IMG/VR virus record: IMGVR_UViG_3300024349_000035
Origin: a virus
DNA length: 64,000 bases
Reading direction: 5' to 3' (one strand)
The notes below the pieces were generated by a model. It was not told where the DNA came from and made no database searches. It worked only from the letters and a program-made list of their open reading frames with translations. How positions within the stretch are numbered: the first letter of the stretch is position 1; the number at the start of each line of letters is the position of its first letter. Below are positions 6,486 to 64,000 of the stretch, one piece after another. Both the position numbers and the translations under genes were made by a program.

Positions 6486-6615
6486 CCATACACTATAGTA
6501 GTGAATGGATGAGATAAATGAAGTCAATGCCTCTCTATACCACCACAACAACTTGTTGTCAAAATACTTCCAGATGACTATCAGCGCCCTTATGCATGAA
6601 ATGAGAGGACTTGTA

Positions 6616-8529
6616 ATGAGGTCTAAATTCGCGAAGCACATTAAGACATTCTTGATTGCATTTATGCTAGTATGTTCTATGCTTGTCAGAACATCAACTA
6701 TGACGGCTCAAACATCCGCAAATTCATATCGGTATGCCTATACTCTTCGTCAGCTGGGATCGATAAATATTAATCTTATTGATCCGGAAAACCTTGGCAA
6801 TCCTCCAACTAGTCTAAGTATTCCCATACCATCAAATTATCTAATTGCAAAAGCTTATGCAAGTCCATCTACTGAGTGGATAGCATTATTGTTTAGTATT
6901 CAGGGGTTCCCTAATACTAATATCAAACTGATAAATACTCACTCTAGCGCAATACGTAGCCTTCCTGAATTTTTTTCATTGTCCGATACATCAGGATCAG
7001 GAGAACCAGAACAAATTTTAGCTTGGTCACCTGATAGTCAATATATAGCTTTTCGAGGGAAGCTTGATGATACGCAAGGACAATCTGATATCTATCTGTA
7101 TTCTCTTGCTTCCGATAGTGTTGTCAACCTAACACATGATGCCGCAACACAGTACCAAATTTCATGGTCAAGGGATAGTCACAGCCTAGCTGTATTCAGC
7201 GAACAGTGTTCAGCTACGTGTCAACCAAACATCGATATTTTCAACATCCCATCTACTAATCGACAATCCTCAGTTAATTTGACTTCTCTTATAAGCCTTG
7301 TGTCTACTATGACAGTTCCCAGTCGAACCACACTTTGCCACTTCGATTGGTCTCCCGACGGGCAGTATATCAGTTTCATAATGGGGTGTGGAATAGACGA
7401 CCTGTATTTCTCAGAAATCTATCTTCTAACTGTTGGCTCTGGCTCGCTGACTGCTTTAACAAGTTTTACAACCTCACCTGCACAGTTGGCGCAGGGGCCT
7501 TCGTCAGAATTCTCCACTATGTATGCTCCTTTTTGGATTAATGCAACTACCCTTTTGCTAGGGGCATACATTCAAGAACACGTCTTGGATCAAGTTCAAA
7601 GAACAGTACAACAAACATCTTCCTACACCCCACCCAACAACACTCCCACTATCCTCAACAATGCAATAAATGAAGAATGGTCAGCTAATCCTGTAACAGG
7701 AGAATTAGCTTTACGATCCTTTAGCCTTGATGCAGCAGAAACAGTTCAAAATGCCTCAGTACAGCTTGCAACACTCAATGGATCAATATTGACTGTATCA
7801 AGAAGTATGCAAGCAGGGTGTTCCTTAAGTTGGACGCCAGATGGGAATATCCTATCATATTACGTTCCTTCTAATTCATATATAAGATGCAAAAGCGCAA
7901 ATTTTGCATCATCGTTGATGTTCTTTAACAAAACAACGGGGCAAGTCACAAGCTACTCTACATTAGGGCAAAATCCGTTAGGGATAGGTTGGGTGTCGAT
8001 TTCGCAGGCTGCTCCCACTAACACACCGACCCCAACACCCACCCACACCAATACGCCCGTTCCAAGCACCTTGAAGATGCAATACTTCGCAATGGCAGAT
8101 GAGCGTGGCACAGTCTGGGAAGCCATTGGCCCTGAACTCAACATCGTGAATACGGGTGCGAGTAGCGTTCCCTTAAATCAGTTAAAAGTCCGCTACTACT
8201 TCACCCGCGAAGGCACATCCACGCTGCGATTCGTGTGCTACTACACCGACTTGCCGGGGGGCTGTGGCTCCATCACCAAGCAATTTGTCACGATCACCCC
8301 TGCCGTCTCCGGTGCAGATACTTATCTTGAGTTGGGCTTTTCCAGTGGTACGCTCGCGGCGAACAGCCAGACCGGGGAGATTTACTTCAATATCCATAAA
8401 GCTGACTGGAGCAACTTCGACCAAAGCAACGACTACTCCTTCAACGGAACGTTCACGGATTATACGGACTGGAACAAGATAACGCTGTATCGTAATGGTA
8501 GCCTCGTGTGGGGTGTTGAGCCGCATTAA
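6616..8529 (+). CDS. secreted PD40 beta-propeller protein with Pro/Thr linker and C-terminal CBM3 cellulose-binding domain
   Basis: WSPDSQYIAF, WSRDSHSLA, WSPDGQYISF, WTPDGNIL repeats; PTNTPTPTPTHTNTP linker; LKVRYYFT...ADTYLELGF...DWSNFDQSNDYSF...ITLYRNGSLVWGVEP is a classic CBM3; start placed at the RBS-preceded ATG 6616. Confidence 0.85.
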   Translation: MRSKFAKHIKTFLIAFMLVCSMLVRTSTMTAQTSANSYRYAYTLRQLGSININLIDPENLGNPPTSLSIPIPSNYLIAKAYASPSTEWIALLFSIQGFPNTNIKLINTHSSAIRSLPEFFSLSDTSGSGEPEQILAWSPDSQYIAFRGKLDDTQGQSDIYLYSLASDSVVNLTHDAATQYQISWSRDSHSLAVFSEQCSATCQPNIDIFNIPSTNRQSSVNLTSLISLVSTMTVPSRTTLCHFDWSPDGQYISFIMGCGIDDLYFSEIYLLTVGSGSLTALTSFTTSPAQLAQGPSSEFSTMYAPFWINATTLLLGAYIQEHVLDQVQRTVQQTSSYTPPNNTPTILNNAINEEWSANPVTGELALRSFSLDAAETVQNASVQLATLNGSILTVSRSMQAGCSLSWTPDGNILSYYVPSNSYIRCKSANFASSLMFFNKTTGQVTSYSTLGQNPLGIGWVSISQAAPTNTPTPTPTHTNTPVPSTLKMQYFAMADERGTVWEAIGPELNIVNTGASSVPLNQLKVRYYFTREGTSTLRFVCYYTDLPGGCGSITKQFVTITPAVSGADTYLELGFSSGTLAANSQTGEIYFNIHKADWSNFDQSNDYSFNGTFTDYTDWNKITLYRNGSLVWGVEPH

Positions 8530-24801: not shown

Positions 24802-27800
24802 CTAATTATACATGCCATACAGATGTTCCCGCCAGATACGGCGGGAATCTGCATCGACCACTTCGGTTACACGCAGGACGGACAGCCGTGCGTCGTGAGG
24901 CCACAGGAAGCCCAAGACCTCTTCCACGTCCGGCACGTAAGGGGCAGGCTCAGGCTCCGGTTCGGGATCAAGTTCGTGATCGTCCGGTACGACCTCCGGC
25001 TCAGGCTCTACGACAGCTTCCGGTGCAGCTTCCACAGGAAGTTCCGGCGCGATCACTTCCGGCTCAGGCCAGTCCATGACCTCAACCACGATCTCCTGAT
25101 CCTCTTCCTGACCGTTCAAGTCCGTGCGCTGGATGAAGTCGCCGTGAACCTGCGCCAGATCAGCAATGCTCGTCGGCTCGAACTCGAAGTCGCGCACACA
25201 CTGAGCCTCTTCCAGTTCCGACAGCGAGAAGTCCCCACCTTCAAACACGAACCCGGCGACCCATCCGGTCAGCAGGTCGGTGTTGTTGACACGTCCCTGC
25301 ACGTACCAAATCCAGTTCGTTTCGGGGTTGTAGATGCGGTAGAGCGCCGGATTGTTCTCGCCCCGCGCCAAATCTTCCAGCGTCGGCAGCGCCGCCCATT
25401 CGTCATCCGTGAGCAGGCGGTAGCGCCCGTCCTCGTGTTCAGCGGCAGCGAAGGCTTCTTCCACCACCTGATCGACACTCGCCGGGATCAGGGCTGGAGC
25501 GTCCTCCACCCACTCCGCATCTACCGTATCCGGTTCAAGGTCGAAGGTGTCCACACGGCGCACCTTGTCCGTGAAGCCGATCCGGTAATCGTCACGCTCT
25601 TCCAGCAGGTCACGGACGTAATCCAAGAACGGGTTGTCTTCTACCTTGCTCTCAAAGAGCGCTTTGTTGTCGTCGGAGAACTGTGGCAGTTCATCCTTCA
25701 ACACCGCCTTACGGACAACCTGTGTGATGTCATCCTGACCCGCCGACAGAGCCGACAGCGCTTCACCCACATTGCCCATGACGACAGCAGCGGCCTTCAT
25801 CTTCTCAGCCATTGCCAGCGCCGCCAAAGCCTGAATGTGGTTGTCCTTCTGGCTCTGGCTCTTGCGGGGGTCTTCCCCGTATGCCCACGTGTGGATGATG
25901 ACCTTCTTGTTCTGACCAGGACGCACCACACGGCGCATCGCCTGAGCGATCACGAACAGGGAACGATGTGGCACGCCGACCAGATGCACGTGGTTGAACA
26001 TGATCAGGTTCAGACCGGTAGCGATCAGTTCGGGATTGCAAATCAGCACGTTGTAATCCCGGTCAACCGCGTCACGGATCGCCGCTTCGCGTTCATCCCG
26101 ATCACAATCGGCGTAGTCTTCCTTCTCGCACCACGTCTTGATCGTCATGTCGCTCTTGGTGGTCAGGACGAACGGCTTGAGTCCGGCTGCTTTGCACATC
26201 TTGTAGATGCTCTTCGCCGCAGGCCGCTTCTGACCAGATACGAAGATGATTGCCCTGTCGCCCAGCGCTGCGTCCTGTGCTATCCTTGCAGCGACTTCCG
26301 AGGTGAGGCGGGGGGCAGGCCAGTCCGCAGAGAACAAGCGTGCCTTGAGCCACACTTCGGTAGTCTTAACCCGGTGTTCCTCGGCGATCTTGAGATACTT
26401 GTCAGCCTCGTCCGCATTGCCTTCGACCATGTACTTCGCCGCGAGTTTCTCGTACTCTTCGACGCGCTCCCGGTCTTTGGGGTGTATCCACGTTTCATCC
26501 TGATCGGGCGCGAGTATCCAGCCGATTGCCGCCTGAATCCACGCTGACAGCTTGGACATATCACCCTTCACCGCGTCAGATGAAGCGTCCTCACGGATTT
26601 TCTTGAGAACATCCATCTCTGGCTGCACTTCGGGGTCTACCGGAACCCAGTGAAACTCGCTCACGGCAGGCGGCAGTTCGATGTTCAGGTCTGCCAAGTC
26701 CATGAAGGTCGCATACGGCAGCAGCCATTGAACGATGTCCGGCATACAGCCGTTGGCTTCGCGCTTGCTGACATGCTCCACGAACGCCTTGCCGCCGAAG
26801 CCCTTGACCCCGGCCTTGACCTTCGCCTTCTGCATGGTGATGTAGATGTCATTGACACCGTACTCGTCCACGAACTTGCTCACCTGATCGTAGCGGTACA
26901 GGCGACGGAACTCCGGTGACATGCGGTGCAGCAGGTAGAACAGGCCGGAAGCCTTGCCGTTGTAGATCGTCCCGGTCAGGCCGAGCGTCCACTTGCTGTT
27001 CGTCGCCAGCTTGCCCATGATCATGCCCCTAGAACTGTCTCCACTCTTAAAAATTTGAATCTCGTCCGCGATCAGCGCGTAGCGCCGAGCGTAGCGGGCG
27101 GCAATGTATTCCCCGATGCTGGCGCGCGCCGATCCGGTCTTGGCCTCGACCAGTTCGCCCTTCTCGAAGTCGTAGTTGGGCTTGAGGGTGAACCGACGCA
27201 CGTGCTTCCCGGTAGACAGGGCAATGGTTTCTGCCTCAAACTGCTCCATGTTGTCACCGAACCGGGTGAAGCTGAACATGGGCGTGCCGCACGCTTCATC
27301 CTTGCGGGCAGGCTGCACCACTTCCATGCTGATCGCCTGCCACTCGATATTCTTCCCGGTGCTGAGGTACTTCGTACCGGGACGGTACTCGACCATGCGC
27401 GGCGACCCATCATCATTGAACAGCGGTTCGCCCGTCTTCACGTCGATGTCCTGTACGAACTCGACGTTGGCAGGCACGCGCACTTCCACAGGAAGCACTT
27501 CCATCATGACCCGCCCCTCTTCGTCGTACTCACGCCTGGTCTGCACGGTGTTTTGACAGAACAGCTTCTGGCGGTTGGCGGGCCGCTTCTCGTAGTGGAC
27601 GAACGGATCGTCAATGATGTCGCCCTTGCTGGTTTTGATGATGTGGATGCCGCCGCAGGTCGGGCAGGTCATCACCGGTTCTTCCGCCAGCGCCCGCGAC
27701 ATGACTTCGCGCTTGTGTTCCAGCTTCGGCACAAAGCTGTACCGCCAGGGCGCACCCAACTTGGCGTGAGTCTCCGACAGGATCAGGATACCCAACCCCG

Positions 27801-29658
27801 GCGCGGCAAACAGGTCGTCAATGTCCTGATAGACCGTGCTGTAGCGGGCGAACATGGTCTTGCCGCAATGTTCGCAGTTGACCATGTTGCGGCGTTCCAG
27901 CTTGCCCTCAACCTCTTCGTGTGTCTTCCCGCTGATCTTGTTGATCGTGCCGCAATGCCCGCAGGTGATCTTCTTCTTGGACGCATCGTACCCGTAGGCA
28001 CGGTGGAAGCGTTCGACGTGACCGGGGATGACAATCGGCACATCCACGCGGTAGGCTTCTTCCAGCTTGGACAGGACAGCCTTCGCTTCGCGCGTCCAGT
28101 TATGCACCAGATGACCCGGCATCAGGATGATGATCTTCTCGCTGTCCTCACCCTTCATGATCTTGTCGATGCGGTTTTGCAGTTTCATGATCAGAGTGGA
28201 CATGGCAATCGACGTTTTGCCTGATCCCATCTCAGCGATTACGGCGGCGTACTTGTTGTTGGTTAGGTGGAACGCGGCAGCGCTGGCGTGCAGGAACTGA
28301 GCGGGCAGGGGCAGGCGGTACACGTGCGAAATATCTTCCAGCGTGCAGCCGACCACGCGCCCATCATCCAGCTTCACCGCCGTTGGGACACGTTCGCCGT
28401 TCTCGTTCTTCTTCACATCGGCTACCGTCGCCTTCGTGCCATCTGCCATACGCACGCGGGTCAGGTTCGACACCACACCGGGCGAACCGATCCACCCGGC
28501 AATATCAAGGAACTTCGGCGCGTGCTTGGTCACTTTGAATTGTGGCGGGAAATCGCGGTGGATCGTGTCACGGAACACGTCCAGATGACGCATCACGAAA
28601 TCGGTCATGACACCCGGTTCTTTGGTGCTGAACGTATGCACCTTCCCGTCATCGATGTTCATGGCGTTGATGGTGATGACAGGCTGCTCATGCACCACGA
28701 ACTTCTGCTCTTCCCCGTCATTCACGCGCTCAGGGGTAGAGCGTTCTTTGGTGCTGCTCCCGGTGATGATCAGGTTGCCCAGTTCAGGGTCACGCATGGT
28801 CATGGAGTCCATCATGCCGCCCGCGATCAGATTGGCGGTATGCCCATCCCGCAGTTCGTCAAGGATCGGCTGACGCTCCGCGAACGTGCGCGGGACGATC
28901 AACTGATTCCACTCGCCTGATGCGGTCACGCCGAACTCATCCAGCGCCTTGAGCGCCGTGCTGAGATCAGGCATGGCGACAATGAACTTCTCTACCGCCC
29001 GCTCGACAGCCGGAACCATGAACGGCGCGACCTCTGCCAGCGCCAGCGTCGGGTAATCCTTCTTCTCCAGCGACTGATCCCACGACGAGATGTTGCGCTC
29101 ACGCTTGCGCCCGAAGACGATGACCTCATCGTACTTGCTGTACTCTTGGGGGACGTAGAACTGCCCCAACCACTCGTAAATCTGCGTGAACTCGTAGGAC
29201 GTGGTACGCTTCGACGCATGGGCATGGGTCGTCACGAAGATGACCACGCCACCCGTCTTAACCCACTTGCTCGTAAAGTCCAGCCAGCGGAGTTCTTCAT
29301 TCCCGTCATTGTCGAACGGCGGGTTGAGGTAGAGGACGCTCAGGGAGTGCGCCGAGATATGGGCGAACTCAGCCGCGCCGCACAAGAACCGGGATTTGCC
29401 CTTCCCGGTTTCGTCGGTGAAGCGCTTGAGCATCTTCCGGTGACGCTCCGACGACAGTTCAATCCCGTAGGGGATAACCTTCTTGTGCTTCGCCGCCAGC
29501 GCCAGCGTCAGGTGATAGAGCATCTCGCCCTCACCCGCGCACAGGTCGGCAATCGTGATCGTACCTTCCGGTTGCAGGAACAGTTGCGAGGCAATCAGCG
29601 GTGCAACGGCGGAGTTCATCGGGTAATAGCCGAGGTTCGCTCTTCCTTGATCGCGCAT
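24802..29658 (-). CDS. N6-adenine-type DNA methyltransferase fused to SNF2-like helicase, with Zn ribbons and a DUF2958-like C-terminal domain
   Basis: MTase motif I DLCAGEG and motif IV NPPF; helicase AEMGSGKT, DEIQ, GLTGT, ATGLNL, QAMRRVVRPGQ; CGHC/CEHC/CPTC; NPETNWIWYV...EGGDFSLSELEE near 25200-25360. Confidence 0.85.
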   Translation of the reverse strand: MRDQGRANLGYYPMNSAVAPLIASQLFLQPEGTITIADLCAGEGEMLYHLTLALAAKHKKVIPYGIELSSERHRKMLKRFTDETGKGKSRFLCGAAEFAHISAHSLSVLYLNPPFDNDGNEELRWLDFTSKWVKTGGVVIFVTTHAHASKRTTSYEFTQIYEWLGQFYVPQEYSKYDEVIVFGRKRERNISSWDQSLEKKDYPTLALAEVAPFMVPAVERAVEKFIVAMPDLSTALKALDEFGVTASGEWNQLIVPRTFAERQPILDELRDGHTANLIAGGMMDSMTMRDPELGNLIITGSSTKERSTPERVNDGEEQKFVVHEQPVITINAMNIDDGKVHTFSTKEPGVMTDFVMRHLDVFRDTIHRDFPPQFKVTKHAPKFLDIAGWIGSPGVVSNLTRVRMADGTKATVADVKKNENGERVPTAVKLDDGRVVGCTLEDISHVYRLPLPAQFLHASAAAFHLTNNKYAAVIAEMGSGKTSIAMSTLIMKLQNRIDKIMKGEDSEKIIILMPGHLVHNWTREAKAVLSKLEEAYRVDVPIVIPGHVERFHRAYGYDASKKKITCGHCGTINKISGKTHEEVEGKLERRNMVNCEHCGKTMFARYSTVYQDIDDLFAAPGLGILILSETHAKLGAPWRYSFVPKLEHKREVMSRALAEEPVMTCPTCGGIHIIKTSKGDIIDDPFVHYEKRPANRQKLFCQNTVQTRREYDEEGRVMMEVLPVEVRVPANVEFVQDIDVKTGEPLFNDDGSPRMVEYRPGTKYLSTGKNIEWQAISMEVVQPARKDEACGTPMFSFTRFGDNMEQFEAETIALSTGKHVRRFTLKPNYDFEKGELVEAKTGSARASIGEYIAARYARRYALIADEIQIFKSGDSSRGMIMGKLATNSKWTLGLTGTIYNGKASGLFYLLHRMSPEFRRLYRYDQVSKFVDEYGVNDIYITMQKAKVKAGVKGFGGKAFVEHVSKREANGCMPDIVQWLLPYATFMDLADLNIELPPAVSEFHWVPVDPEVQPEMDVLKKIREDASSDAVKGDMSKLSAWIQAAIGWILAPDQDETWIHPKDRERVEEYEKLAAKYMVEGNADEADKYLKIAEEHRVKTTEVWLKARLFSADWPAPRLTSEVAARIAQDAALGDRAIIFVSGQKRPAAKSIYKMCKAAGLKPFVLTTKSDMTIKTWCEKEDYADCDRDEREAAIRDAVDRDYNVLICNPELIATGLNLIMFNHVHLVGVPHRSLFVIAQAMRRVVRPGQNKKVIIHTWAYGEDPRKSQSQKDNHIQALAALAMAEKMKAAAVVMGNVGEALSALSAGQDDITQVVRKAVLKDELPQFSDDNKALFESKVEDNPFLDYVRDLLEERDDYRIGFTDKVRRVDTFDLEPDTVDAEWVEDAPALIPASVDQVVEEAFAAAEHEDGRYRLLTDDEWAALPTLEDLARGENNPALYRIYNPETNWIWYVQGRVNNTDLLTGWVAGFVFEGGDFSLSELEEAQCVRDFEFEPTSIADLAQVHGDFIQRTDLNGQEEDQEIVVEVMDWPEPEVIAPELPVEAAPEAVVEPEPEVVPDDHELDPEPEPEPAPYVPDVEEVLGFLWPHDARLSVLRVTEVVDADSRRIWREHLYGMYN

Positions 29659-54385: not shown

Positions 54386-54717
54386 TAACGGCTCTCCAAA
54401 GCCTTGAAGTTGACATTCTTGCGTACCTGAACGCTCAACTCAGCGCTTCCACAGGAAGCAAAGCCTCGCAATTCCTGTGGGACGCTGAGAATAAACAAGC
54501 CGTAATCCCCGACGCTTTTCTCCTGTACCGCAAGATGCAACTGTTTGGCGGGCCGAAGTCCCTCCCCCTCCCGGTAGAAGGCGGTTGGTACGACCAACCA
54601 TACCTGACGTGTTTAACGCTGGAGTCCTGCAAGAAGGCTGAAACATTATTCGAGTTGCAGTTAAAGGCACAGGTAGAAGCACCCAAAGATGGCTCTGTAC
54701 AACGCCCTGACGAGTAG
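54376..54717 (+). CDS. -1 frameshift extension of the tail chaperone (GT)
   Basis: GGGGGAA at 54376-54382; the -1 frame is open through IVTALQSLEV...LPVEGGWYDQPY to TAG at 54717. Confidence 0.78.
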   Translation, partial: GGIVTALQSLEVDILAYLNAQLSASTGSKASQFLWDAENKQAVIPDAFLLYRKMQLFGGPKSLPLPVEGGWYDQPYLTCLTLESCKKAETLFELQLKAQVEAPKDGSVQRPDE

Positions 54718-57700
54718 AATTGATGAGGTCAATCGCCGCCTGAATGACCAGTTTCAGAGCGGTACGATCACCGATCAGATGTTCCGCCGCTACCAGTTGG
54801 GATCAGGCGCTGATCCTGATGATGTACTGCGTTCGCTGTCGGCTGTCGGCAGCATGGAGCGTTCCCCGCAGCGCTGGCGGCGCGAGTCTGAACTGATCGG
54901 GCAGCGCAACGAAGCCACGCAGAACTTCTACCAGCAGGTGCTTTCCCCGATTGCCGATCAGTACAACGCCTCCGGTCAGGGGACACTTCGGTTCGATCAG
55001 GTAGATACGTTCGGCTCAATGGCCTACCGCGCCACCATGTACAAGCCCGGTGGCGAAGTGGCGTGGAGCGCGGACGTGTCTGCCCTTGCGCCGTTTGGAC
55101 GGGATCGGCAAGACCCCAACAATGTCGGGCGCATGGTCATCGGCAACCGCGTGGTCGATGTGGATGTGCCGATGGGCGGCTTTGAGAACCCGGCGAACAA
55201 GACGACGCAGTACGGCCTTGCCCAAAGCCTTCTAACCAGCTTCAACAGCCCGTACAAGTCCAGCGCCGTGCGGATCGACGGGCGCGACAAGGACTTTCAG
55301 GGCAATTACCTGAACCCGTTCGACACGGCTTCTGACAGTCCGTTCTATTCGCGCATCTCACAGAGCAACCGCGTTTCGCCCAATGTCTTCCTGACTCCGA
55401 AATACCGGGGCAGCACGATTGACCTGAACGCCTATGTCGGACAGACGGGCGGCGAACTGAACCCGCTCCTCGTCAGCTTGCAGAAGCAGGGCTACACCCA
55501 CCTTGCCGGGTACGATGATTACCTCGGCAGCGATTACACGCTCCGGCAGGGTACGCACACCATCTCTAACCAGTCATTTCTTGACATTCCCGGCTGGTAT
55601 CAGGGAGAAGATGGCAAGCTGTACACCGGGATTGGCAATGACCCGCTCAAGGCCATGTCCAAGTCCGGTCAATTGGGCGGCACACGTGAGTCCGCCAACT
55701 ACGGGCCACAGGCCGGTACATTCGCGGAGTGGCAAGAAGGCAACGTGCGTACCGCAGGCTCTAACGTCCTGACGGGCGGCTACAAGGAGCGCACGTTCAT
55801 TGCCCTGACGGGCATGGGTATCGGTGAAGGGCAGGGGCTTGTCAATACGAACCGTGCTGGCACGATTTGGGAACGCCGCCAGCAGCGGGTAGAGGTTGGC
55901 CTTGATGCGAACGGCAACCTGATGCTGGATCGGGACACGCAAAGCCTGATGACGCAGCTACAGGGCGGGCAGCAGGTGAGCGCAGGGCGCAGCGTGTGGG
56001 ACATCTCCGGTAAGCGCGTGAACTTCGCCGGATCGTGGGGTGACGCGACCCTGATGGGTGTCCAGACCGACATCCGTGAAACCGACAAGGGCAAGCGCGG
56101 CTATCTGGTCTTTGACGTGATGCGATCCGGCGCTGAAATGTCCACCAAGAGCGCAGGTACAAAGTCCTTTGATGTACGGGAAGATTTCGGCGCGTTCGGT
56201 GATGGGTGGGATCGGTTTGACCGGATCATTACCAAGCCCAAGAACCTGAATACCTTCGCCGCCAGAGTGTTCGATGCTATGAGTGACGACCAGTTCCGGT
56301 CTGTCATGGCAGAACACAGCCGCAAGTTCGGCAACCCGCAGAACGTCGATCTATCGCAGGGCGCAGTCGAAAACGGTGTGTACATCCCGGCGCGGCATGG
56401 TTCGCAGGCGACCCCCTACCTGATGGACGTGTTCCGTAAGACCATCGTGCCAAGTGCGCTTGAGATGCGTACCATGCACCGCAACTTCGATGAAGCCTTC
56501 TTCGACAATGTGATGGGTGTGGATAATCCCTGGGTGAAGGAACTGGGGCGGGCAAACGGTCAGGTATCAGTAGAAATGACCGTACCCGGCCTCAATCTGG
56601 AGATGCTGGTCAACAAGTCGCCGGAACTCTCACGCGGCGGCGGGCGCATGAACTTTGAGGACATCACGAACCGTCTGTGGCTGGCAGACAAATCCGGTGA
56701 CACTGTTGCGCGGGATGTACTGGGCAGCTTGTTTAACGGCGGGCAGGCCGCACGGATAGATGTGGCAAAATCTGCCATGTTGTCTGACAAGACCGCGCAG
56801 CAGTACATGGAAACGCCCACCAACACCTTTGCTCTGTCGGGGATTACGCAGCAGCAGCGCGAACGCTACCGCGACGTGGTGCGCTCCATCGGTACGGATG
56901 CGTCCGAGCCGAATGTGATGGCACAGCAGCTTGCCGCGCTCCAAGAGATCGTCGGGGACAACCTGATCGACACCGGAACAGGGACATTTCTACCCTCGCC
57001 GGATGTGATGGGCAAATTCTCCGTTGCCAGCGCCAATCGGCAGCAGAGTAATTACGTGCGCCAGTATGCCAGCGTAATGCACGAAGCCATGATGAGTGAC
57101 GAGGCGCTTCCTGTGGAAGCGTTTGATAAGGTCTACCGGGCGCAGGCCAAACTCGCCAAACAATCCGGCTTCCGCAAGAACATTCTGAGCAACCGCAATC
57201 AGGCCGTGTTTGGCAATGTCTATACCAGCGACCAGTTGCTTGCGCCGAACCAGATGGTTATGCGCGAGAGCGAGATCGTGACCCGCCTGCACAAACTGGC
57301 GCAGAACGAAGGGGTCGATGCGACCAAAGACGAAATCAAGGCAATGCTGGCAGAGATGCGGGCGGGCGGCGAAGGGCTATCTGCCTATGTCGAACGCAAC
57401 CCGGTGTCAGAAGGCCACACGCAGCGGGCGCTCACCCTGCAAATCCTGAACGAACAGGAATACAAAGCAATGGGCGGCACGAAGCGAGTAGGCCGTTCGC
57501 CCATTGTCTCAGATTACTTCGCTTACGCATCGGGCGGCGACGTGGACGCTGACCGTCTGATGGGTATCTTCGCCGCGTCGATCAGCCGCGATCAATCCGG
57601 CAAGCTGACCGCACAATGGGGCGACGTGACCAGCAATGATCGGATGAAGACCATTGCAGCCGGGAGCGTGGCTGGCGAACTCATGAAGCACATTGCTGAA

Positions 57701-60700
57701 CAGCGCGGCGACGATGTGCTGGCTGGCATGAAACCAGCCGACATCCAGCGGATCATCCAGAACAAGGATGTGGGGGCGCTGGCAGATTTGCTCATTGCGC
57801 CGGACGGGATGCTGAACAGCCGCAAGAAGGCCGAAGGTATCGACATGCAGGACTTGGCGGGTGCGTCACGCCGCCTGCAAACCGCGAAGTCTAACATGGG
57901 CATGGCTTACAACCTGGGGCGTATGCTCACGCCGAACGCAATGGCGAACGAAGAATCGTATACCGCCGCCAGTAAGTTCATGGGTGCGCTCTACCAGCCC
58001 GCGCTCGACAAGGAGTTTGTCAAGGGGACGGACGACACGATGAGCAGCAGGGCGCGTGACCTGATGAAACTGATGAAGACGAACCTCGTCACAGGCAGTT
58101 TCTTTACTGGCTATGACACCAAGCCTGAGTCGTGGCCCGGTATGAAGTCCGGTTCGTACCGCGCCGCCAACCGGAGCGCGGCTGAGAACATCCCTGAGTT
58201 TGCATCACGCACGGTCAAGTCGCTCCTGTCGGCTACGGAGATGGCAGGCGATCCAGACTCGATTGCCGCCCTGCTCACACCAAGCTATGCCAGCGACGAT
58301 ACCAAGACCAGCATCCGCGAGAGCGTGGAACTGGGTCTATCCTACGCCGGGGACAAGAATCTGGATGCTGATGCAATCGACGCAGGGGTAACGCAGGCGG
58401 CAGATGCGATTATTGCGGCAATCGGTGGGGATGCAGGCTCTATCCAAGCGGCTGAGAACCGGATCGGGGCAGATAAGATTAACGCCGTGACCTCCGACTC
58501 TCGACGCGCCGGGTACGTTGCGGCGCTGTCCGATGCCCCCATCCTCGAAACCATTATGTCGGCGGCGGGCTTGCACACGCAGCGGGCAGACAAGAACCGG
58601 GCGTTCATCGGCAAGGGCAGACCGGATAACATCGTCAACTCCATCATCGGCGCGTTGGGGCAGGAAGGCTCTATCCGTGAGAGCATCGTCCGTGCTGTGT
58701 CACGCGGCGCGAAGATGGATACGGTAGCTGATCTGACCCGTACCCTGATGCAGATGCGGGCAGGGTTCGCACAACAGAAGGGTGGCGCAGCGGCAGCGCA
58801 ATATGTGGATTCGCTGCTCGGTCAACTCGGCATGAACCTCAATGACGATGGTCTGGTGGCACAGGCGGCATCTGAAAGTCTGAATAGCTACCGGGCTTCT
58901 CGCACGGCACGCTCCAAGCAGTCCCGCGAACAATACGAAGCGCGGATCGCCAGCCAGCAGCAGCGGCTATCCGGCATGAACCTCGGCGCAGGGATCGATG
59001 TACTGGGCGCAATTCACGGCGCGTCAAACATCAACTTCGGCAACGTGTCGTTCAGCCCGTCATCTATCGGTAAGCCCGAAAGCCTCTTCCTGACGGGTCT
59101 AACTGGCTCTGGCTTGATGGATATTCCAGTCAAGGGCGGGGGCGGATCAGGCTCAGGGGTAGAGTTCGGGTCGAAGGTTCACGGCATTGCCGAACGCGCC
59201 TTCGGGCAGGATGCAGAATTGGAACAGCGCTACGGCAAGCGCATCCGGCATGAGTTCGGTGTACAGGGTGAACTCGGCGGGGTGAAGTGGGCGGGCCGCG
59301 CCGATATGCTGGCAGACCAGAACGGCAAGCGTGTTCTGTACGACATCAAATCACACGGCGCGGGTGGGATCAACCCCGACCTGATGGAACACTATCAGGC
59401 GCAGATGGAACTCTACGGGCATCTCATGACCAACGCCGGGGAACAGGTCGATGAGATGGCGATCATCCCGGTAGACCGCGAGAAGTATCAGGAGAAGTAC
59501 GATGAACTGATACAAGGCTCTGGCCTGTCCGAAGAAGAGATGCAGAATATCGCGCTCCGTGAAGCCTCTGGTGCGCCGATACCCGTTCCCTTCACACCGG
59601 GTCAGGTATCGCCGCAGCTACAGGGGATGCTTGATCAGGTGAAGGGTATCTCTGACCTCATTGGGGCAGATGCGGGGCGCGTGCGCCTGAACAATAATGC
59701 GAAGGCAACGCCAGCAGACCGCAAGGCAGCGCTGGCGAACGTCCATCAGGTCTTGGCAAAGGTCGGCGCAAGTCTGCCCGATGGCGGGTCGGCAATGGGT
59801 TTGCCCAAAGCTGAACTCGCACAGGGTCTTGCTTCGCCTGCTGTGCGCCAGCGGCTAGGGATCAGTCCCGACTCGCATCCCGAATTGGGTGATCTGCTGG
59901 CGAACGCGGGTAACGGCGGCGCTGGTTCTGGTGGCGGCGGGGTAGCTTCCACAGGAAGCGTCGATCCGTCTTCCGGTGGCGGCGGCTCTGGTGGCGGTGG
60001 GAACAATAACAATCTCGTCCTCGCTTTGCAAGATATGGTGCAGCAGCTATTTGACCGTCCCGCCGCGCCAATCCGCGAAACGGCGCTATCAGACACCAAG
60101 CGTACCATCGGCACGCTCAGACCGCAGTCCGGCTTCAAGACGCTCGATGCTGAACTGGCGCACTACAAGGCGCAGGCCGACAAAGGTACGCTAACCAAGC
60201 CGATGATCCAGCGCATCAAGGCCATTGATCAGGCTATGCGCAAGGGGATTAGCCTTGAAGATTCAGCCGGAAAATGGAAGAGCCAGAACGACCCGATTGG
60301 GCAACAGGTGTTGGGGGCGTTGTCCGGCAATGAAGGTATGTCAGCCGCCCGCGCCCATCTACTTGACATGGATGCGCAGGGTACATCCGATTTCAGCAAG
60401 CCCGGTTTGCTCGATATGGCGGTGGAACAGGAGCAGTCACAGCGGCTAACGGCGGGCGAGAAGGCGCTGGCGCGGGAAAGCCAGCGGGACATTGACGCTG
60501 AAACAAAGCGGCTGGAACGGCTGGAAGTCATGCAAGCGCCGTATATGGCACGCACAGATCGGGATACGATGCTGCAAGACCTTCAATCGCGGGTCATGGA
60601 AACCGACGAAGGGACTGCCCTCACGTCGCATGAACAGCGCTTGATGAAGGTGCTTCAAGCCGCCAATGCGCGGGAAGATGCGGGTGTCAAGAAGCTGGCA

Positions 60701-63700
60701 GGCGACAAGAAGCGCATCGGCACACGCGCAGCAGAGGCAGACTACATTCAGATGTCGGCAGCGGAACGGCGCAGCTTCCGCTCGGCAGTCCTGAGCGATC
60801 CCAATGCGCGGGATACGTTCGATGAGGGCTTCGTCAACAAGCTGTCGTCTGAACGGGAGCGCATCATCAGCGGGCCACAGCGGGCGGGCTTCGATACACG
60901 CGAACTGGATGAACTGTCGGGGCAGGTCAACGCGCTCGGCGGTGTCCTCAAGAACCTGGGCAAGATCAGCGAAGACGCATCGAAGGGTGTTGAAAAGCTG
61001 ACCGATCAGCAGGTCAAGTACATCGGCATGTCTGCCAAGCTGTACGACACCATCAATAAGTCCTTGACTGACCACCAGAAGATCGCTGACGAAGCCGAAC
61101 CGAACGATCCACGTGCCGCGCTGTCACGTGCTGTCATTGAGAGCGCGGAGAAGGCGGGCGTGTGGTCGCAGGGTGAAGCATCCGGCAGGCTCAAGACGCT
61201 TCGGACGGGTCTATCCAAATCCAACCTGTACAGCCGTGCCGTGCAGCAGCAGCTTGATGACATGCTGGAAGAAGCTGCACCGCAGGAGCTATCTACCACT
61301 GACAAGTTCTCGGCCTTCCTGAGTAGAGGCAAGGCGGGGCAGAAGGCACGTGACATGCTCCGCGACACCGGGCAACTGGGCGCAGAAGGGTCACTCCAAC
61401 GTGCCGCATGGGAAGGGCTTGCGCCAATCGCCGCTGCACCGTATCACCTGCTGCACGCCCGGTATGAACTACAGGGCTTGCAGAACATGGTCATCGGGCC
61501 AATGCAGCAGGCGCAGCAAGCCTACCTTGCCAACCAGCAGCAGGCGTTCATGCAGAATGTCCAATACAACGGCTTCGCGGCCTTCCAATCGCCAAGCTAC
61601 ATGAACGCCTTCGGGTCTGCCATTGCCATGCAGAACCAGCAGTATTACATGGGCGAACAGGCCAACGCCGTTCTCGGTGGCTTCCAGCGGGGTATCGCCG
61701 GGGTGATGGGCAACCGGAATGTGGCAGGCGCAACAACCGCAGGCCAGATGATCATCGGCGCTGCTGCTGCTGGTGGTATCGCTACGGGCTGGAACCCCTT
61801 CGCCATTGCCGCAGGCGGGATCGTCGGGGCGGGCGCGTTTGCCGCAGGGCAGGCATTTGATGTTGCCAGCAATGCAGATCGCAGACTCAACGCGATTGCC
61901 GATCCCGGCAGCGACATTACCGGAGCGTTCGGCAATGTCTTCAACCGCTACATCGTCAACCGGATCGGCGCAATATGGGATCGCGGCGGCTACGACCAGC
62001 GCGAAGGCCAGTTCCAGCTTGATGACAAGCGGGCAAGCATCTTGAAGGGCGCACTCGATACAGGTATCAAGGCGACCATCGACGGGGTAGGCTTCGCAGA
62101 GGGGTCTGTTCAGTCGGCCTACAAGTCAAAGATGCGCGAACGGATGCAGAATGGCGATCTGAACTTCATGTCGATGGACATGATCAACGCGCTATCAGGC
62201 CGCGCCGAAGCCATTGTTGGCACGGACTGGGCCGCGCCGGGTGTTAACAAAGAGGGTGAGTATCAGGACATCCTCGGCATCCTGGGGCGGGGCGCGATCT
62301 CTGGTGTCAAGACCGACGAGATGGCGCTGCAAGCAATGGAAATTGCAGGCGGGTCGGCGGCAAACATCCGGTCAGCGGGCTACCGGAGTGCGCTCAAGGG
62401 AATCGACAGTCTGATTGCCGACAAGGAGAACGGCGGCTACTATGCCCGCGCGCTACCCGGTATCATGCAGCAGATCGGGAATATCACCGAAGTTCAGCGG
62501 GCAATGGGCTTCAAGACGACCTACGGCAACAATGCACAGGGCGTGATCGACAACTCGAAGAAGATTGCCGATGCCATGAAGGGCATTGACGACCTGTACG
62601 AGTCAGGCCGGATCAGCGCCGAAGAACGGGATGCACAAAAGCGCAAGATACAGGAATCGCTTGATGCGGATAGCCTGTGGGCAAACCTTGCGCCAACCTC
62701 TAGCCTGTTCTCGCAGAGCAATCAGGGTGGGGCCAGCCGCATCTATAACTTCCTGACCAGTCAAACGGGCGCGGCGTTCCAGAACGTCAAGTCATGGATG
62801 GGGGTCGGCGGCGGGATTGTCAACGCCTACGAAACGCGGGGCAGCGCAGCAGAGGGTGACTATCTCGGTGGCGCGGTCATGGCAGGTCTACCGACAACCG
62901 CCAATCAGAACGCCGTTGGTGGGATCGCCAATTACCTGATGCAGACGGGGTTGGCAGACCGCATGATGAACCGCAACGATGCGGCGGGCATCTCGCGCAT
63001 GAGCCGCCAAATCTACGGGCTTGACCAGAACAACATCAACTACGAAGGCTTTGCGGGTTCACTGGCGGCAATCCAGCGCTTCAACGCCAACGACCCTACA
63101 CAGATGGGCAATGCCCGCGTCCAGAGCATTGAAGGACTGAGCGCCATGCTCACAGCGCGGGATGGACGTGGATCAAGCATGTACTCGATTGCCGACATCA
63201 ACGCCTTCATAACCAGTATGGGTTACGCAGGACAGGCCGCGAACGCCGCAGGCATGGGCGGTATCCGGTTGACAACTGGCGAAGTCAATCAGTTCAGGGG
63301 GCTACGGGCAGAGAACGCAGCCGGAATCATCGGTTCGTACCAAGCCGCCGCAGGGCAGGCGCAGACCGGACTTGGGTTCATGGGTGGGCTTGCCAGCCGG
63401 ATCAATGCGGTCTACGGCGCGAACACCGATGAAGGCTTGCGGCTCGGTGCGCAGTTGTCCAACCAGCGGGATCAGGTCTATCAGCAGTTTGCCGCTGGCG
63501 CTCGGTATGGTGTGGCTGATGCAGGGGCGCGATCAGCGTTTGAACGGATCGGCGCAATCACCGATGCCAACCAGTTCGGCATGTACAGCGCCGCCGCTGG
63601 TGGTGACATGCGGGCAATCTCGCAACTTGCCGCACAGGGCGCTCTACCAAGCTGGATGCAGCGTGTCCAACTGACAGGCGAATACGCCGGGGCAGAGATG

Positions 63701-64000
63701 GGCTACGCGCAGGTGTCCGGCGCAATGCAGAGCCGTAGGTTGTCGATGAACGCCGCCGCTGGTGGGGTGTTCATGACCGGATCAGGCAGATACAGTGTGG
63801 GTCAGCTTGCGGGCATGAGCGAACTGGATGTGCAGCGCGAGAGCCGTTCGCTTGAGATTGAGGGGCGCGAGTACGACTTTGCGCTCCAGAACACGCAGAT
63901 GCGGCGGCGGCGGGCGCAGATGACCGGATCAGGACTGAGCGAGTTCGGCCTGACCGAAGGGCATGGCGACTACTGGTTTGAGGATGTGAACGTTTCGCTG
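54689..64000 (+). CDS. giant tape-measure-position protein (>3104 aa, truncated) with N-terminal two-barrel RNA polymerase and PD-(D/E)XK nuclease domains
   Basis: Open frame from ATG 54689 to the window end (translated and spot-checked by hand); EGQG (E380), K487-SAGT-K492, R903-N-P, GG-D951-V-D953-A-D955, KSNMGMAYN, YQPALD; G-x-x-V-H, D1539, D1552-I-K1554, Q1572-xxx-Y1576; Gly-rich linker near 59910-60010, then Ala/Gly/Gln-rich helical TMP-like sequence. Confidence 0.85.
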   Translation, partial: MALYNALTSRIDEVNRRLNDQFQSGTITDQMFRRYQLGSGADPDDVLRSLSAVGSMERSPQRWRRESELIGQRNEATQNFYQQVLSPIADQYNASGQGTLRFDQVDTFGSMAYRATMYKPGGEVAWSADVSALAPFGRDRQDPNNVGRMVIGNRVVDVDVPMGGFENPANKTTQYGLAQSLLTSFNSPYKSSAVRIDGRDKDFQGNYLNPFDTASDSPFYSRISQSNRVSPNVFLTPKYRGSTIDLNAYVGQTGGELNPLLVSLQKQGYTHLAGYDDYLGSDYTLRQGTHTISNQSFLDIPGWYQGEDGKLYTGIGNDPLKAMSKSGQLGGTRESANYGPQAGTFAEWQEGNVRTAGSNVLTGGYKERTFIALTGMGIGEGQGLVNTNRAGTIWERRQQRVEVGLDANGNLMLDRDTQSLMTQLQGGQQVSAGRSVWDISGKRVNFAGSWGDATLMGVQTDIRETDKGKRGYLVFDVMRSGAEMSTKSAGTKSFDVREDFGAFGDGWDRFDRIITKPKNLNTFAARVFDAMSDDQFRSVMAEHSRKFGNPQNVDLSQGAVENGVYIPARHGSQATPYLMDVFRKTIVPSALEMRTMHRNFDEAFFDNVMGVDNPWVKELGRANGQVSVEMTVPGLNLEMLVNKSPELSRGGGRMNFEDITNRLWLADKSGDTVARDVLGSLFNGGQAARIDVAKSAMLSDKTAQQYMETPTNTFALSGITQQQRERYRDVVRSIGTDASEPNVMAQQLAALQEIVGDNLIDTGTGTFLPSPDVMGKFSVASANRQQSNYVRQYASVMHEAMMSDEALPVEAFDKVYRAQAKLAKQSGFRKNILSNRNQAVFGNVYTSDQLLAPNQMVMRESEIVTRLHKLAQNEGVDATKDEIKAMLAEMRAGGEGLSAYVERNPVSEGHTQRALTLQILNEQEYKAMGGTKRVGRSPIVSDYFAYASGGDVDADRLMGIFAASISRDQSGKLTAQWGDVTSNDRMKTIAAGSVAGELMKHIAEQRGDDVLAGMKPADIQRIIQNKDVGALADLLIAPDGMLNSRKKAEGIDMQDLAGASRRLQTAKSNMGMAYNLGRMLTPNAMANEESYTAASKFMGALYQPALDKEFVKGTDDTMSSRARDLMKLMKTNLVTGSFFTGYDTKPESWPGMKSGSYRAANRSAAENIPEFASRTVKSLLSATEMAGDPDSIAALLTPSYASDDTKTSIRESVELGLSYAGDKNLDADAIDAGVTQAADAIIAAIGGDAGSIQAAENRIGADKINAVTSDSRRAGYVAALSDAPILETIMSAAGLHTQRADKNRAFIGKGRPDNIVNSIIGALGQEGSIRESIVRAVSRGAKMDTVADLTRTLMQMRAGFAQQKGGAAAAQYVDSLLGQLGMNLNDDGLVAQAASESLNSYRASRTARSKQSREQYEARIASQQQRLSGMNLGAGIDVLGAIHGASNINFGNVSFSPSSIGKPESLFLTGLTGSGLMDIPVKGGGGSGSGVEFGSKVHGIAERAFGQDAELEQRYGKRIRHEFGVQGELGGVKWAGRADMLADQNGKRVLYDIKSHGAGGINPDLMEHYQAQMELYGHLMTNAGEQVDEMAIIPVDREKYQEKYDELIQGSGLSEEEMQNIALREASGAPIPVPFTPGQVSPQLQGMLDQVKGISDLIGADAGRVRLNNNAKATPADRKAALANVHQVLAKVGASLPDGGSAMGLPKAELAQGLASPAVRQRLGISPDSHPELGDLLANAGNGGAGSGGGGVASTGSVDPSSGGGGSGGGGNNNNLVLALQDMVQQLFDRPAAPIRETALSDTKRTIGTLRPQSGFKTLDAELAHYKAQADKGTLTKPMIQRIKAIDQAMRKGISLEDSAGKWKSQNDPIGQQVLGALSGNEGMSAARAHLLDMDAQGTSDFSKPGLLDMAVEQEQSQRLTAGEKALARESQRDIDAETKRLERLEVMQAPYMARTDRDTMLQDLQSRVMETDEGTALTSHEQRLMKVLQAANAREDAGVKKLAGDKKRIGTRAAEADYIQMSAAERRSFRSAVLSDPNARDTFDEGFVNKLSSERERIISGPQRAGFDTRELDELSGQVNALGGVLKNLGKISEDASKGVEKLTDQQVKYIGMSAKLYDTINKSLTDHQKIADEAEPNDPRAALSRAVIESAEKAGVWSQGEASGRLKTLRTGLSKSNLYSRAVQQQLDDMLEEAAPQELSTTDKFSAFLSRGKAGQKARDMLRDTGQLGAEGSLQRAAWEGLAPIAAAPYHLLHARYELQGLQNMVIGPMQQAQQAYLANQQQAFMQNVQYNGFAAFQSPSYMNAFGSAIAMQNQQYYMGEQANAVLGGFQRGIAGVMGNRNVAGATTAGQMIIGAAAAGGIATGWNPFAIAAGGIVGAGAFAAGQAFDVASNADRRLNAIADPGSDITGAFGNVFNRYIVNRIGAIWDRGGYDQREGQFQLDDKRASILKGALDTGIKATIDGVGFAEGSVQSAYKSKMRERMQNGDLNFMSMDMINALSGRAEAIVGTDWAAPGVNKEGEYQDILGILGRGAISGVKTDEMALQAMEIAGGSAANIRSAGYRSALKGIDSLIADKENGGYYARALPGIMQQIGNITEVQRAMGFKTTYGNNAQGVIDNSKKIADAMKGIDDLYESGRISAEERDAQKRKIQESLDADSLWANLAPTSSLFSQSNQGGASRIYNFLTSQTGAAFQNVKSWMGVGGGIVNAYETRGSAAEGDYLGGAVMAGLPTTANQNAVGGIANYLMQTGLADRMMNRNDAAGISRMSRQIYGLDQNNINYEGFAGSLAAIQRFNANDPTQMGNARVQSIEGLSAMLTARDGRGSSMYSIADINAFITSMGYAGQAANAAGMGGIRLTTGEVNQFRGLRAENAAGIIGSYQAAAGQAQTGLGFMGGLASRINAVYGANTDEGLRLGAQLSNQRDQVYQQFAAGARYGVADAGARSAFERIGAITDANQFGMYSAAAGGDMRAISQLAAQGALPSWMQRVQLTGEYAGAEMGYAQVSGAMQSRRLSMNAAAGGVFMTGSGRYSVGQLAGMSELDVQRESRSLEIEGREYDFALQNTQMRRRRAQMTGSGLSEFGLTEGHGDYWFEDVNVSL

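Follow-up and report, generated by a model that had tools for sequence, protein, structure and literature searches.

A RecB-family nuclease domain inside a giant candidate tape-measure protein of an uncultured temperate phage

Results

A RecB-family nuclease domain is embedded in a giant phage protein

The virus record IMGVR_UViG_3300024349_000035 (79,856 bp, classed as a provirus in IMG/VR and about 80% complete) was analysed over a 64,000-nucleotide stretch, bases 2855-66854, hereafter the window. On its plus strand, ORF analysis of the full record finds one stop-free open reading frame (ORF) of 3,475 codons, which starts at window position 54689 and continues beyond the window end. Within the encoded protein lies a domain that sequence comparison confirms as a RecB-family PD-(D/E)XK nuclease. 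Its catalytic residues are all intact, and it is probably catalytically active. The best explanation that we can offer for the whole, which we hold to be about evenly balanced between right and wrong, is that this is the tape-measure gene of a temperate phage with a long tail, found in bioreactor and activated-sludge metagenomes, that the gene product carries RNA polymerase, nuclease and ruler parts, and that it would be delivered with the genome and process its ends. The original prediction, made from the DNA letters, had placed the nuclease in frame within a single polypeptide, as the uninterrupted ORF bears out. All coordinates given below and in Table 1 refer to the window unless stated otherwise.

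As assessed with the Pfam profile PDDEXK_1 (PF12705), for which the curated gathering cut-off is 22 bits, the excised domain scores 27.7 bits (E 3e-6), the entire protein 22.9 bits and a six-frame search of the genome 25 bits, the nuclease domain being the single PDDEXK_1 match in the 79.9-kb record. Among PHROG families, the domain matches an exonuclease family (phrog_298, E 9e-7) and a Cas4-like family (phrog_1706, E 5e-5), and its protein-language-model features score 0.96 against viral PDDEXK_1 clusters, which are about 180 residues long. Aligned by hhalign to a profile of 32 RecB-family domains, from which the query was left out, it gives a probability of 95.9% (E 6e-9). These 32 domains, drawn from loci in genomes and in IMG/VR, comprise AddA/AddB-like, Cas4-like and stand-alone phage exonuclease sequences. 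The matches returned by tblastn are weak (E 0.02-7, 26-29% identity), and all of them are phage exonucleases or Cas4-like proteins. The original prediction had named a profile search as a check on its RecB-family assignment, and the PDDEXK_1 score of the excised domain upholds it.

The GxxxH, hhD, (D/E)xK and QxxxY motifs are present in this order, and the hallmark set of G1494, H1498, E1522, D1539, D1552, K1554, Q1572 and Y1576 is complete. The motifs carry the numbering originally given to them (G1494 to Y1576) and occupy 59168-59416, within the interval 59150-59480 first proposed for the nuclease. When the query is aligned with the 32 RecB-family domains, to which it is 11-24% identical, G1494, H1498, D1539 and K1554 are invariant, and E1522, G1536, Y1569, Q1572 and Y1576 are nearly so. 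An alignment of the query with three of the tblastn matches leaves P1457, S1458, G1494, H1498, E1502, D1539, K1554, Q1572 and Y1576 invariant. Because it falls between the P-S motif (amino acids (aa) 1457-1458) and motif I, a glycine-rich run is located inside the nuclease domain and not at its edge. At the columns of the Cas4 iron-sulfur cysteines (one N-terminal, three C-terminal), the query has gaps or other residues, and the cysteine count across all 3,475 residues of the giant protein is zero. The Cas4 iron-sulfur cluster is therefore absent, and the domain is of RecB type, not Cas4 proper (PF01930). Of the label RecB/Cas4-like, the likeness to the Cas4 fold thus stands, whereas the four cluster cysteines are missing.

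Modelled from the single sequence, aa 1445-1660 gave an unusable AlphaFold prediction with a predicted local distance difference test (pLDDT) score of 40. When supplied with the family alignment, AlphaFold2 predicted an alpha-beta-beta-beta-alpha-beta core (pLDDT 77.2, predicted template modelling score 0.73), i.e. the restriction-endonuclease-like fold on which the initial assignment depended. As the family alignment was used to build it, this model is consistent with homology and is not independent proof of it. The top ranks in Foldseek and VIA-align searches with the model are all PD-(D/E)XK exonucleases, the top PDB matches spanning Z scores of 8.6-11.7: MGME1 (11.7), Cas4 (11.5), a DinG-fused nuclease (11.4), SSO0001 (11.1), AddA (10.5), AdnA and Exo5 (both 10.2), RecE (9.6) and lambda Exo (8.9). 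In BFVD, 113 viral models match at E<=0.001, the RecB-family exonuclease of phage P23-45 among them. Several of these matches are to fragments of crAss-like and siphovirus proteins of great length, one of them named 'Structural protein', which suggests that large virion proteins in other groups of phages contain PD-(D/E)XK domains too.

The agreement of four independent profile methods (Pfam, PHROG, language model and hhalign), the residue-by-residue conservation of eight hallmark positions and the fact that one nuclease clade supplies all top structural matches make it scarcely credible that the motif set is a chance resemblance with no nuclease domain behind it. Such a resemblance would fit the failure of the single-sequence fold and the lack of sequence homologs of the domain among 1.84 billion cluster representatives or in a 5.8-billion-sequence non-redundant collection.

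The nuclease lies in a variable region between conserved flanks

The nearest relative of the giant protein is P0009, a 3,751-residue ORF on an IMG/VR contig (L072:101-11353, minus strand). Both flanks of the giant protein align to P0009, whereas the intervening 886 residues do not. In P0009, the stretch from about residue 1560 to 2300 contains linkers rich in Pro and Ala and a set of three tandem repeats, each about 150 residues long, in place of a nuclease. A short N-terminal peptide of P0009, R-Y-K/R-H-P-x-T-G-K/R-F-I-S-K-A, recurs inside that protein. Searched with PF12705, none of 14 related viral records has a match within the giant gene, and one of them has a separate matching frame of 314 codons. 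Neither did phmmer find the nuclease domain in any giant relative, nor Pfam any domain in the middle regions of nine of them. The co-occurrence of polymerase and nuclease domains in homologous tape-measure proteins, which the original prediction had put forward as a check, is thus not seen, the nuclease being absent from each of 16 related giant proteins.

Wider searches with the nuclease returned repeat-protein artefacts only (phmmer, cluster representatives), the query itself or nothing (two word-indexed searches, one of them of the non-redundant collection) and noise only (PDB sequences). For a pattern scan, the alignment of the query with its three exonuclease matches was too divergent. 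A profile made from the exonuclease alignment gave seven matches over 401 genomes, several of them in frames of about 1,160-1,180 residues that we took to be AddB-like.

An activated-sludge contig from an independent study, about 10% divergent, overlaps the middle region. All 12 differences listed between 58440 and 58641 fall at third codon positions, as does a further one at 60961 (13 of 13 listed in total). These third-position differences show that the middle region is real coding sequence under purifying selection. Across the nuclease, pieces from the same study are identical or differ by one letter, and are therefore useless for judging conservation of the catalytic residues. That these pieces match also means that the phage occurs outside its source sample. 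Taken together, the sequence comparisons point to a lineage-specific cassette, i.e. a RecB-type nuclease that this lineage alone would have acquired, and the variable middle region looks like a slot for the exchange of cargo domains.

A tape-measure-like part and a probable RNA polymerase flank the nuclease

By sequence, the C-terminal 1,370 residues are tape-measure-like and would form the ruler and membrane part of the protein. The last 370-560 residues are common to P0007, P0008 and 14 IMG/VR loci, and in the atlas the C-terminal part has tape-measure families as its neighbours (0.90-0.92). Scanning GTDB with the C-terminal alignment gave no matches. The Gly/Ser-rich linker and the hydrophobic stretch were found where they had first been placed. 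Giant proteins of this family (2,300-3,800 residues) occupy the tape-measure slot of uncultured phages on IMG/VR, NCBI and Logan contigs (L057-L070, L004, L005). Several members are on contigs of 80-95 kb, and gene order around the giant gene is the same in the relatives as here.

At the other end, the module of about 1,200 residues that precedes the middle region is probably, to judge from its motifs only, a two-barrel virion RNA polymerase of the P23-45 gp96 type. An alignment of 10 divergent giant proteins shows no substitution at P905, D951, D953 or D955 and near-invariance at R903 and G950, and the spacing of this RxP...GDxDxD signature resembles that of beta-prime and of gp96. A DxDxD motif occurs once, at residues 820-1200 and mostly preceded by Gly, in P0007, P0008 and 10 of the 14 IMG/VR loci; L062 has none, and three IMG/VR loci gave only short or 5'-truncated frames. 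Aligned by hhalign to gp96, the module pairs the same motifs with the gp96 RNP...DFDGD, yet at a probability of 3%. No significant similarity to gp96 was found by phmmer or BLAST, and neither tblastn against the phage collection nor a pattern search of IMG/VR turned up relatives of the polymerase region. Its atlas neighbour is PF05183 at 0.82, which is a lead only. Of the order RNA polymerase, nuclease, tape measure that the original prediction had proposed, the position of the nuclease between an RxP...GDxDxD module and a tape-measure-like part therefore holds, whereas the polymerase is identified by motifs only.

A 13-bp hairpin motif, CTTCC-ACA-GGAAG, has 19 copies with at most one mismatch between 1546 and 59958, where 0.04 are expected. 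Among them are a copy immediately upstream of the giant gene (54446-54458, plus strand), one inside the polymerase module (57107-57119, minus strand) and one inside the Gly-rich linker that follows the nuclease (Table 1).

Gene setting

Upstream of the giant ORF, the same strand encodes the large terminase, the portal and the major head protein, with several ORFs of no assignment after them; downstream are large ORFs with no assignment, one virion structural protein and an endolysin-like peptidase. With terminase, portal and head genes on one side and a structural protein and an endolysin-like peptidase on the other, the giant ORF is in the position of a tape-measure gene. A large serine recombinase with Resolvase, Recombinase and Zn-ribbon domains lies at the record end, left of the window (G000:C1:1-1752, minus strand). 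A provirus record with a terminal large serine recombinase indicates a temperate phage. A scan with the integrase gave only relatives of 21-30% identity, too distant to point to a host. The phage also encodes a RecA-like gene. An exact-sequence contig look-up with the giant protein gave no match.

Elsewhere in the window, a 1,618-residue ORF (24802-29658, minus strand) matches DUF6094 (methyltransferase-like) at its N-terminus and, weakly, a helicase C-terminal profile. Two large ORFs at 4080-8529 (plus strand) have PD40/beta-propeller and CBM_3 cellulose-binding matches, and local G+C content there falls to 41-46%.

Table 1. Features of the giant ORF and of its nuclease domain, in window coordinates
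Feature	Residues	Position	Strand	Evidence or remark
Giant ORF in the tape-measure slot	first 3,104 codons within the window	54689..64000	+	ends at window-equivalent 65116 (G000:C1:57543-67970)
Conserved N-terminal module	aa 25-1216	54761..58336	+	27% identical to P0009 aa 226-1371; probable two-barrel RNA polymerase
R903-N-P905 and G950-D951-V-D953-A-D955		57395..57553	+	alignment of giant proteins
Variable middle region	aa 1217-2102	58337..60994	+	886 residues, unalignable to any relative
RecB/Cas4-type PD-(D/E)XK nuclease domain	aa 1450-1650	59036..59638	+	Pfam, PHROG, hhalign, language model, structure matches
Gly-rich run	aa 1483-1490	59135..59158	+	low-confidence loop
Motif I	G1494-x3-H1498	59168..59182	+	invariant in 33-member and query-free alignments
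Pfam PDDEXK_1 match	aa 1496-1618	59174-59542	+	
Motif II aspartate	D1539	59303..59305	+	metal ligand by homology; invariant in all three family alignments; hhalign
Motif III	D1552-I-K1554	59342..59350	+	K invariant in all three family alignments; hhalign
Motif IV	Q1572-x3-Y1576	59402..59416	+	nearly invariant in 33-member alignment; aligned by hhalign
Gly/Ser/Asn-rich linker	aa 1739-1775	59903..60013	+	separates the nuclease-bearing part from the helical tape-measure part
Hairpin copy inside the Gly-rich linker after the nuclease		59946..59958	+	encodes A-S-T-G-S
Tape-measure core	aa 2103-3474	60995..64000	+	26% identical to P0009 aa 2317-3746
Gly/Ala-rich hydrophobic segment	aa 2346-2390	61724..61858	+	sole strongly hydrophobic window of the protein

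Discussion

Comparison with known systems

P23-45 gp96 is a virion two-barrel RNA polymerase fused to a tape measure, with homologs in P74-26, G20c and TSP4; it was recognised by a beta-prime-type RxP...DxDxD signature, and a place at the tape-measure pore, with transcription of pre-early genes during DNA entry, has been proposed for it (PMC10770324). Like gp96, the giant protein is a single ORF in the tape-measure slot of a long-tailed phage of roughly 80 kb, with similarly spaced RNP...DxDxD motifs in an N-terminal module and with a hydrophobic segment in the ruler part towards the C-terminus. Unlike the case of gp96, the phage here is temperate and mesophilic, and there is no detectable sequence similarity between the two proteins. 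The published description of gp96 includes metallopeptidase and transmembrane domains, and the word 'nuclease' does not occur in it (PMC10770324). P23-45 has its RecB-family exonuclease as a separate gene, gp9, two genes from the DNA polymerase gp11 (NC_009803.1, 4066-4902), and the sole PDDEXK_1 match in its record is a separate 294-codon frame, not gp96.

In motif set, core fold and size, the domain resembles the nuclease domains of RecB, AddA, AddB and AdnA, as well as Cas4, Exo5, MGME1, RecE and lambda Exo. It differs from the RecB/AddA/Cas4 clade in that it has no helicase partner domain and no iron-sulfur cluster and is embedded in a structural virion protein. Its nearest sequence neighbours are stand-alone exonucleases, i.e. 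Lactobacillus phage c5 ORF28, Arthrobacter phage Eileen gp43 and a SIRV Cas4-like protein (PHROG 298/1706), with which it has the motif pattern in common; c5 ORF28 likewise has none of the cluster cysteines. These enzymes are 200-270 residues long, whereas the domain studied here belongs to a tail protein of 3,475 residues. The c5 ORF28 gene adjoins recombination genes for a single-strand DNA-binding protein (SSB) and NinB. A setting of Lambda-Red/RecET type, with a single-strand annealing protein or SSB adjacent, is not what surrounds the giant gene, whose neighbours are tail and capsid genes.

As a concept, the protein also resembles injected polyvalent proteins, in which several enzymatic domains are carried on one virion-delivered polypeptide; the DNase domains of those are ParB-like, and the terms tape measure, RecB and REase (restriction endonuclease) fold do not occur in their description (PMC5512222). 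A virion-associated protein with a restriction-endonuclease fold, gp4, is known in T4-like phages (PMC7824862), and peptidase domains in tape-measure proteins have been published (PMC10770324). In a quick Pfam search of the Bacillus phage 0305phi8-36 genome, PF12705 matched at E<=0.01 solely in a stand-alone 272-codon frame. We found no paper on a nuclease domain inside a tape-measure protein, nor on a polymerase-nuclease-ruler protein, in line with the original prediction, which knew of no characterised example of the three-part combination. New here would be an enzyme-carrying tape measure of the P23-45 type to which a RecB-type nuclease cassette has been added.

A possible role at the ends of the incoming genome, and its rivals

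The tape measure of phage 80alpha is a trimer whose N-termini touch the tail completion protein, which caps the end of the DNA, and whose C-termini reach the tip of the tail (PMC11661146). If the giant protein is arranged in the same way, its half with the polymerase and the nuclease would adjoin the leading DNA end in the virion. Tape-measure proteins exit the tail at infection, and this one, probably in three copies, would come out just ahead of that end. With N-termini beside the capped DNA end and exit from the tail, the nuclease copies would enter with, or directly ahead of, the first DNA. We give an even chance to the idea that the nuclease acts on the phage genome's own ends, as a Mg-dependent 5'-3' exo/endonuclease whose resection or trimming of an end would serve circularisation, recombination or the loading of the neighbouring polymerase, ahead of all phage gene expression. 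The original prediction had likewise supposed delivery with the genome, and had named end processing for circularisation, the opening of templates for the polymerase and attack on host DNA as candidate roles. We favour end processing because the structural neighbours are all DNA-end-processing 5'-3' exonucleases, and because a temperate lifestyle argues against wholesale destruction of host DNA. A more elaborate form of this proposal is very doubtful: at the cytoplasmic mouth of the tape-measure channel, the nuclease would be coupled to the adjacent virion polymerase, 5'-strand resection would expose a single-stranded template, and hairpins such as CTTCC-ACA-GGAAG could act as N4-style promoters or pause sites.

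The nuclease might instead work in the producing cell, where the tape-measure precursor is made in bulk late in infection. It would then serve replication-phase recombination or concatemer processing, or be removed by cleavage at the Gly-rich linker while the tail is assembled, processing being known for some tape-measure proteins. In favour of this are the flexible linkers near the domain, the RecA-like gene, the lack of any other PDDEXK_1 match in the record, the position of the stand-alone P23-45 RecB-family exonuclease beside a DNA polymerase and the weak tblastn neighbours, which are recombination-module exonucleases adjoining SSB and NinB genes. We nevertheless consider a producing-cell role unlikely, since it would be strange for a replication enzyme to be supplied as a fusion to a structural protein made late, no partner for single-strand annealing is nearby, and, the record being about 80% complete, another exonuclease may exist. 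An injected weapon, turned at infection on host, plasmid or competing-phage DNA or on defence-related nucleic acids, would match the lineage-specific acquisition in a variable slot, which is the pattern expected of conflict genes, and has a precedent in the polyvalent proteins thought to turn DNases on host or rival DNA (PMC5512222). For a temperate phage, however, harming the host chromosome would defeat lysogeny, and each virion would deliver only a few copies, bound to a protein associated with the membrane, which makes a weapon decidedly unlikely. A domain that, without degrading DNA, holds the leading end, shields it from RecBCD/AddAB or tethers it to the polymerase seems highly improbable to us, as catalytic residues that are all intact are unexpected in a purely binding module; its expected position next to the DNA end in the virion (by the PMC11661146 analogy) and the end-protecting virion proteins of other phages, including a DNA end protector (PMC7824862), would suit such a clamp.

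Several observations weigh against processing of the incoming genome ends by a polymerase-nuclease-ruler protein. Since none of the 16 related giant proteins has the nuclease, it is dispensable for the polymerase and ruler functions, and with no orthologs the maintenance of its activity is without evolutionary support. The confident fold model depends on the RecB-family alignment, the single-sequence model having failed. PDB sequence and profile searches of the N-terminal module found no polymerase similarity. Finally, cleavage at the Gly-rich linker could keep the nuclease out of virions.

Significance

Tape-measure proteins were long viewed as passive rulers, until P23-45 showed that one can deliver a polymerase. 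If the giant GDxDxD proteins found in many environmental phages of 80-95 kb are polymerases, the P23-45 design extends far beyond four Thermus phages. If end processing by the embedded nuclease is true, some phages bring along an enzyme that is ready to work on DNA ahead of all gene expression, which would bear on genome circularisation, escape from RecBCD/AddAB and the start of transcription.

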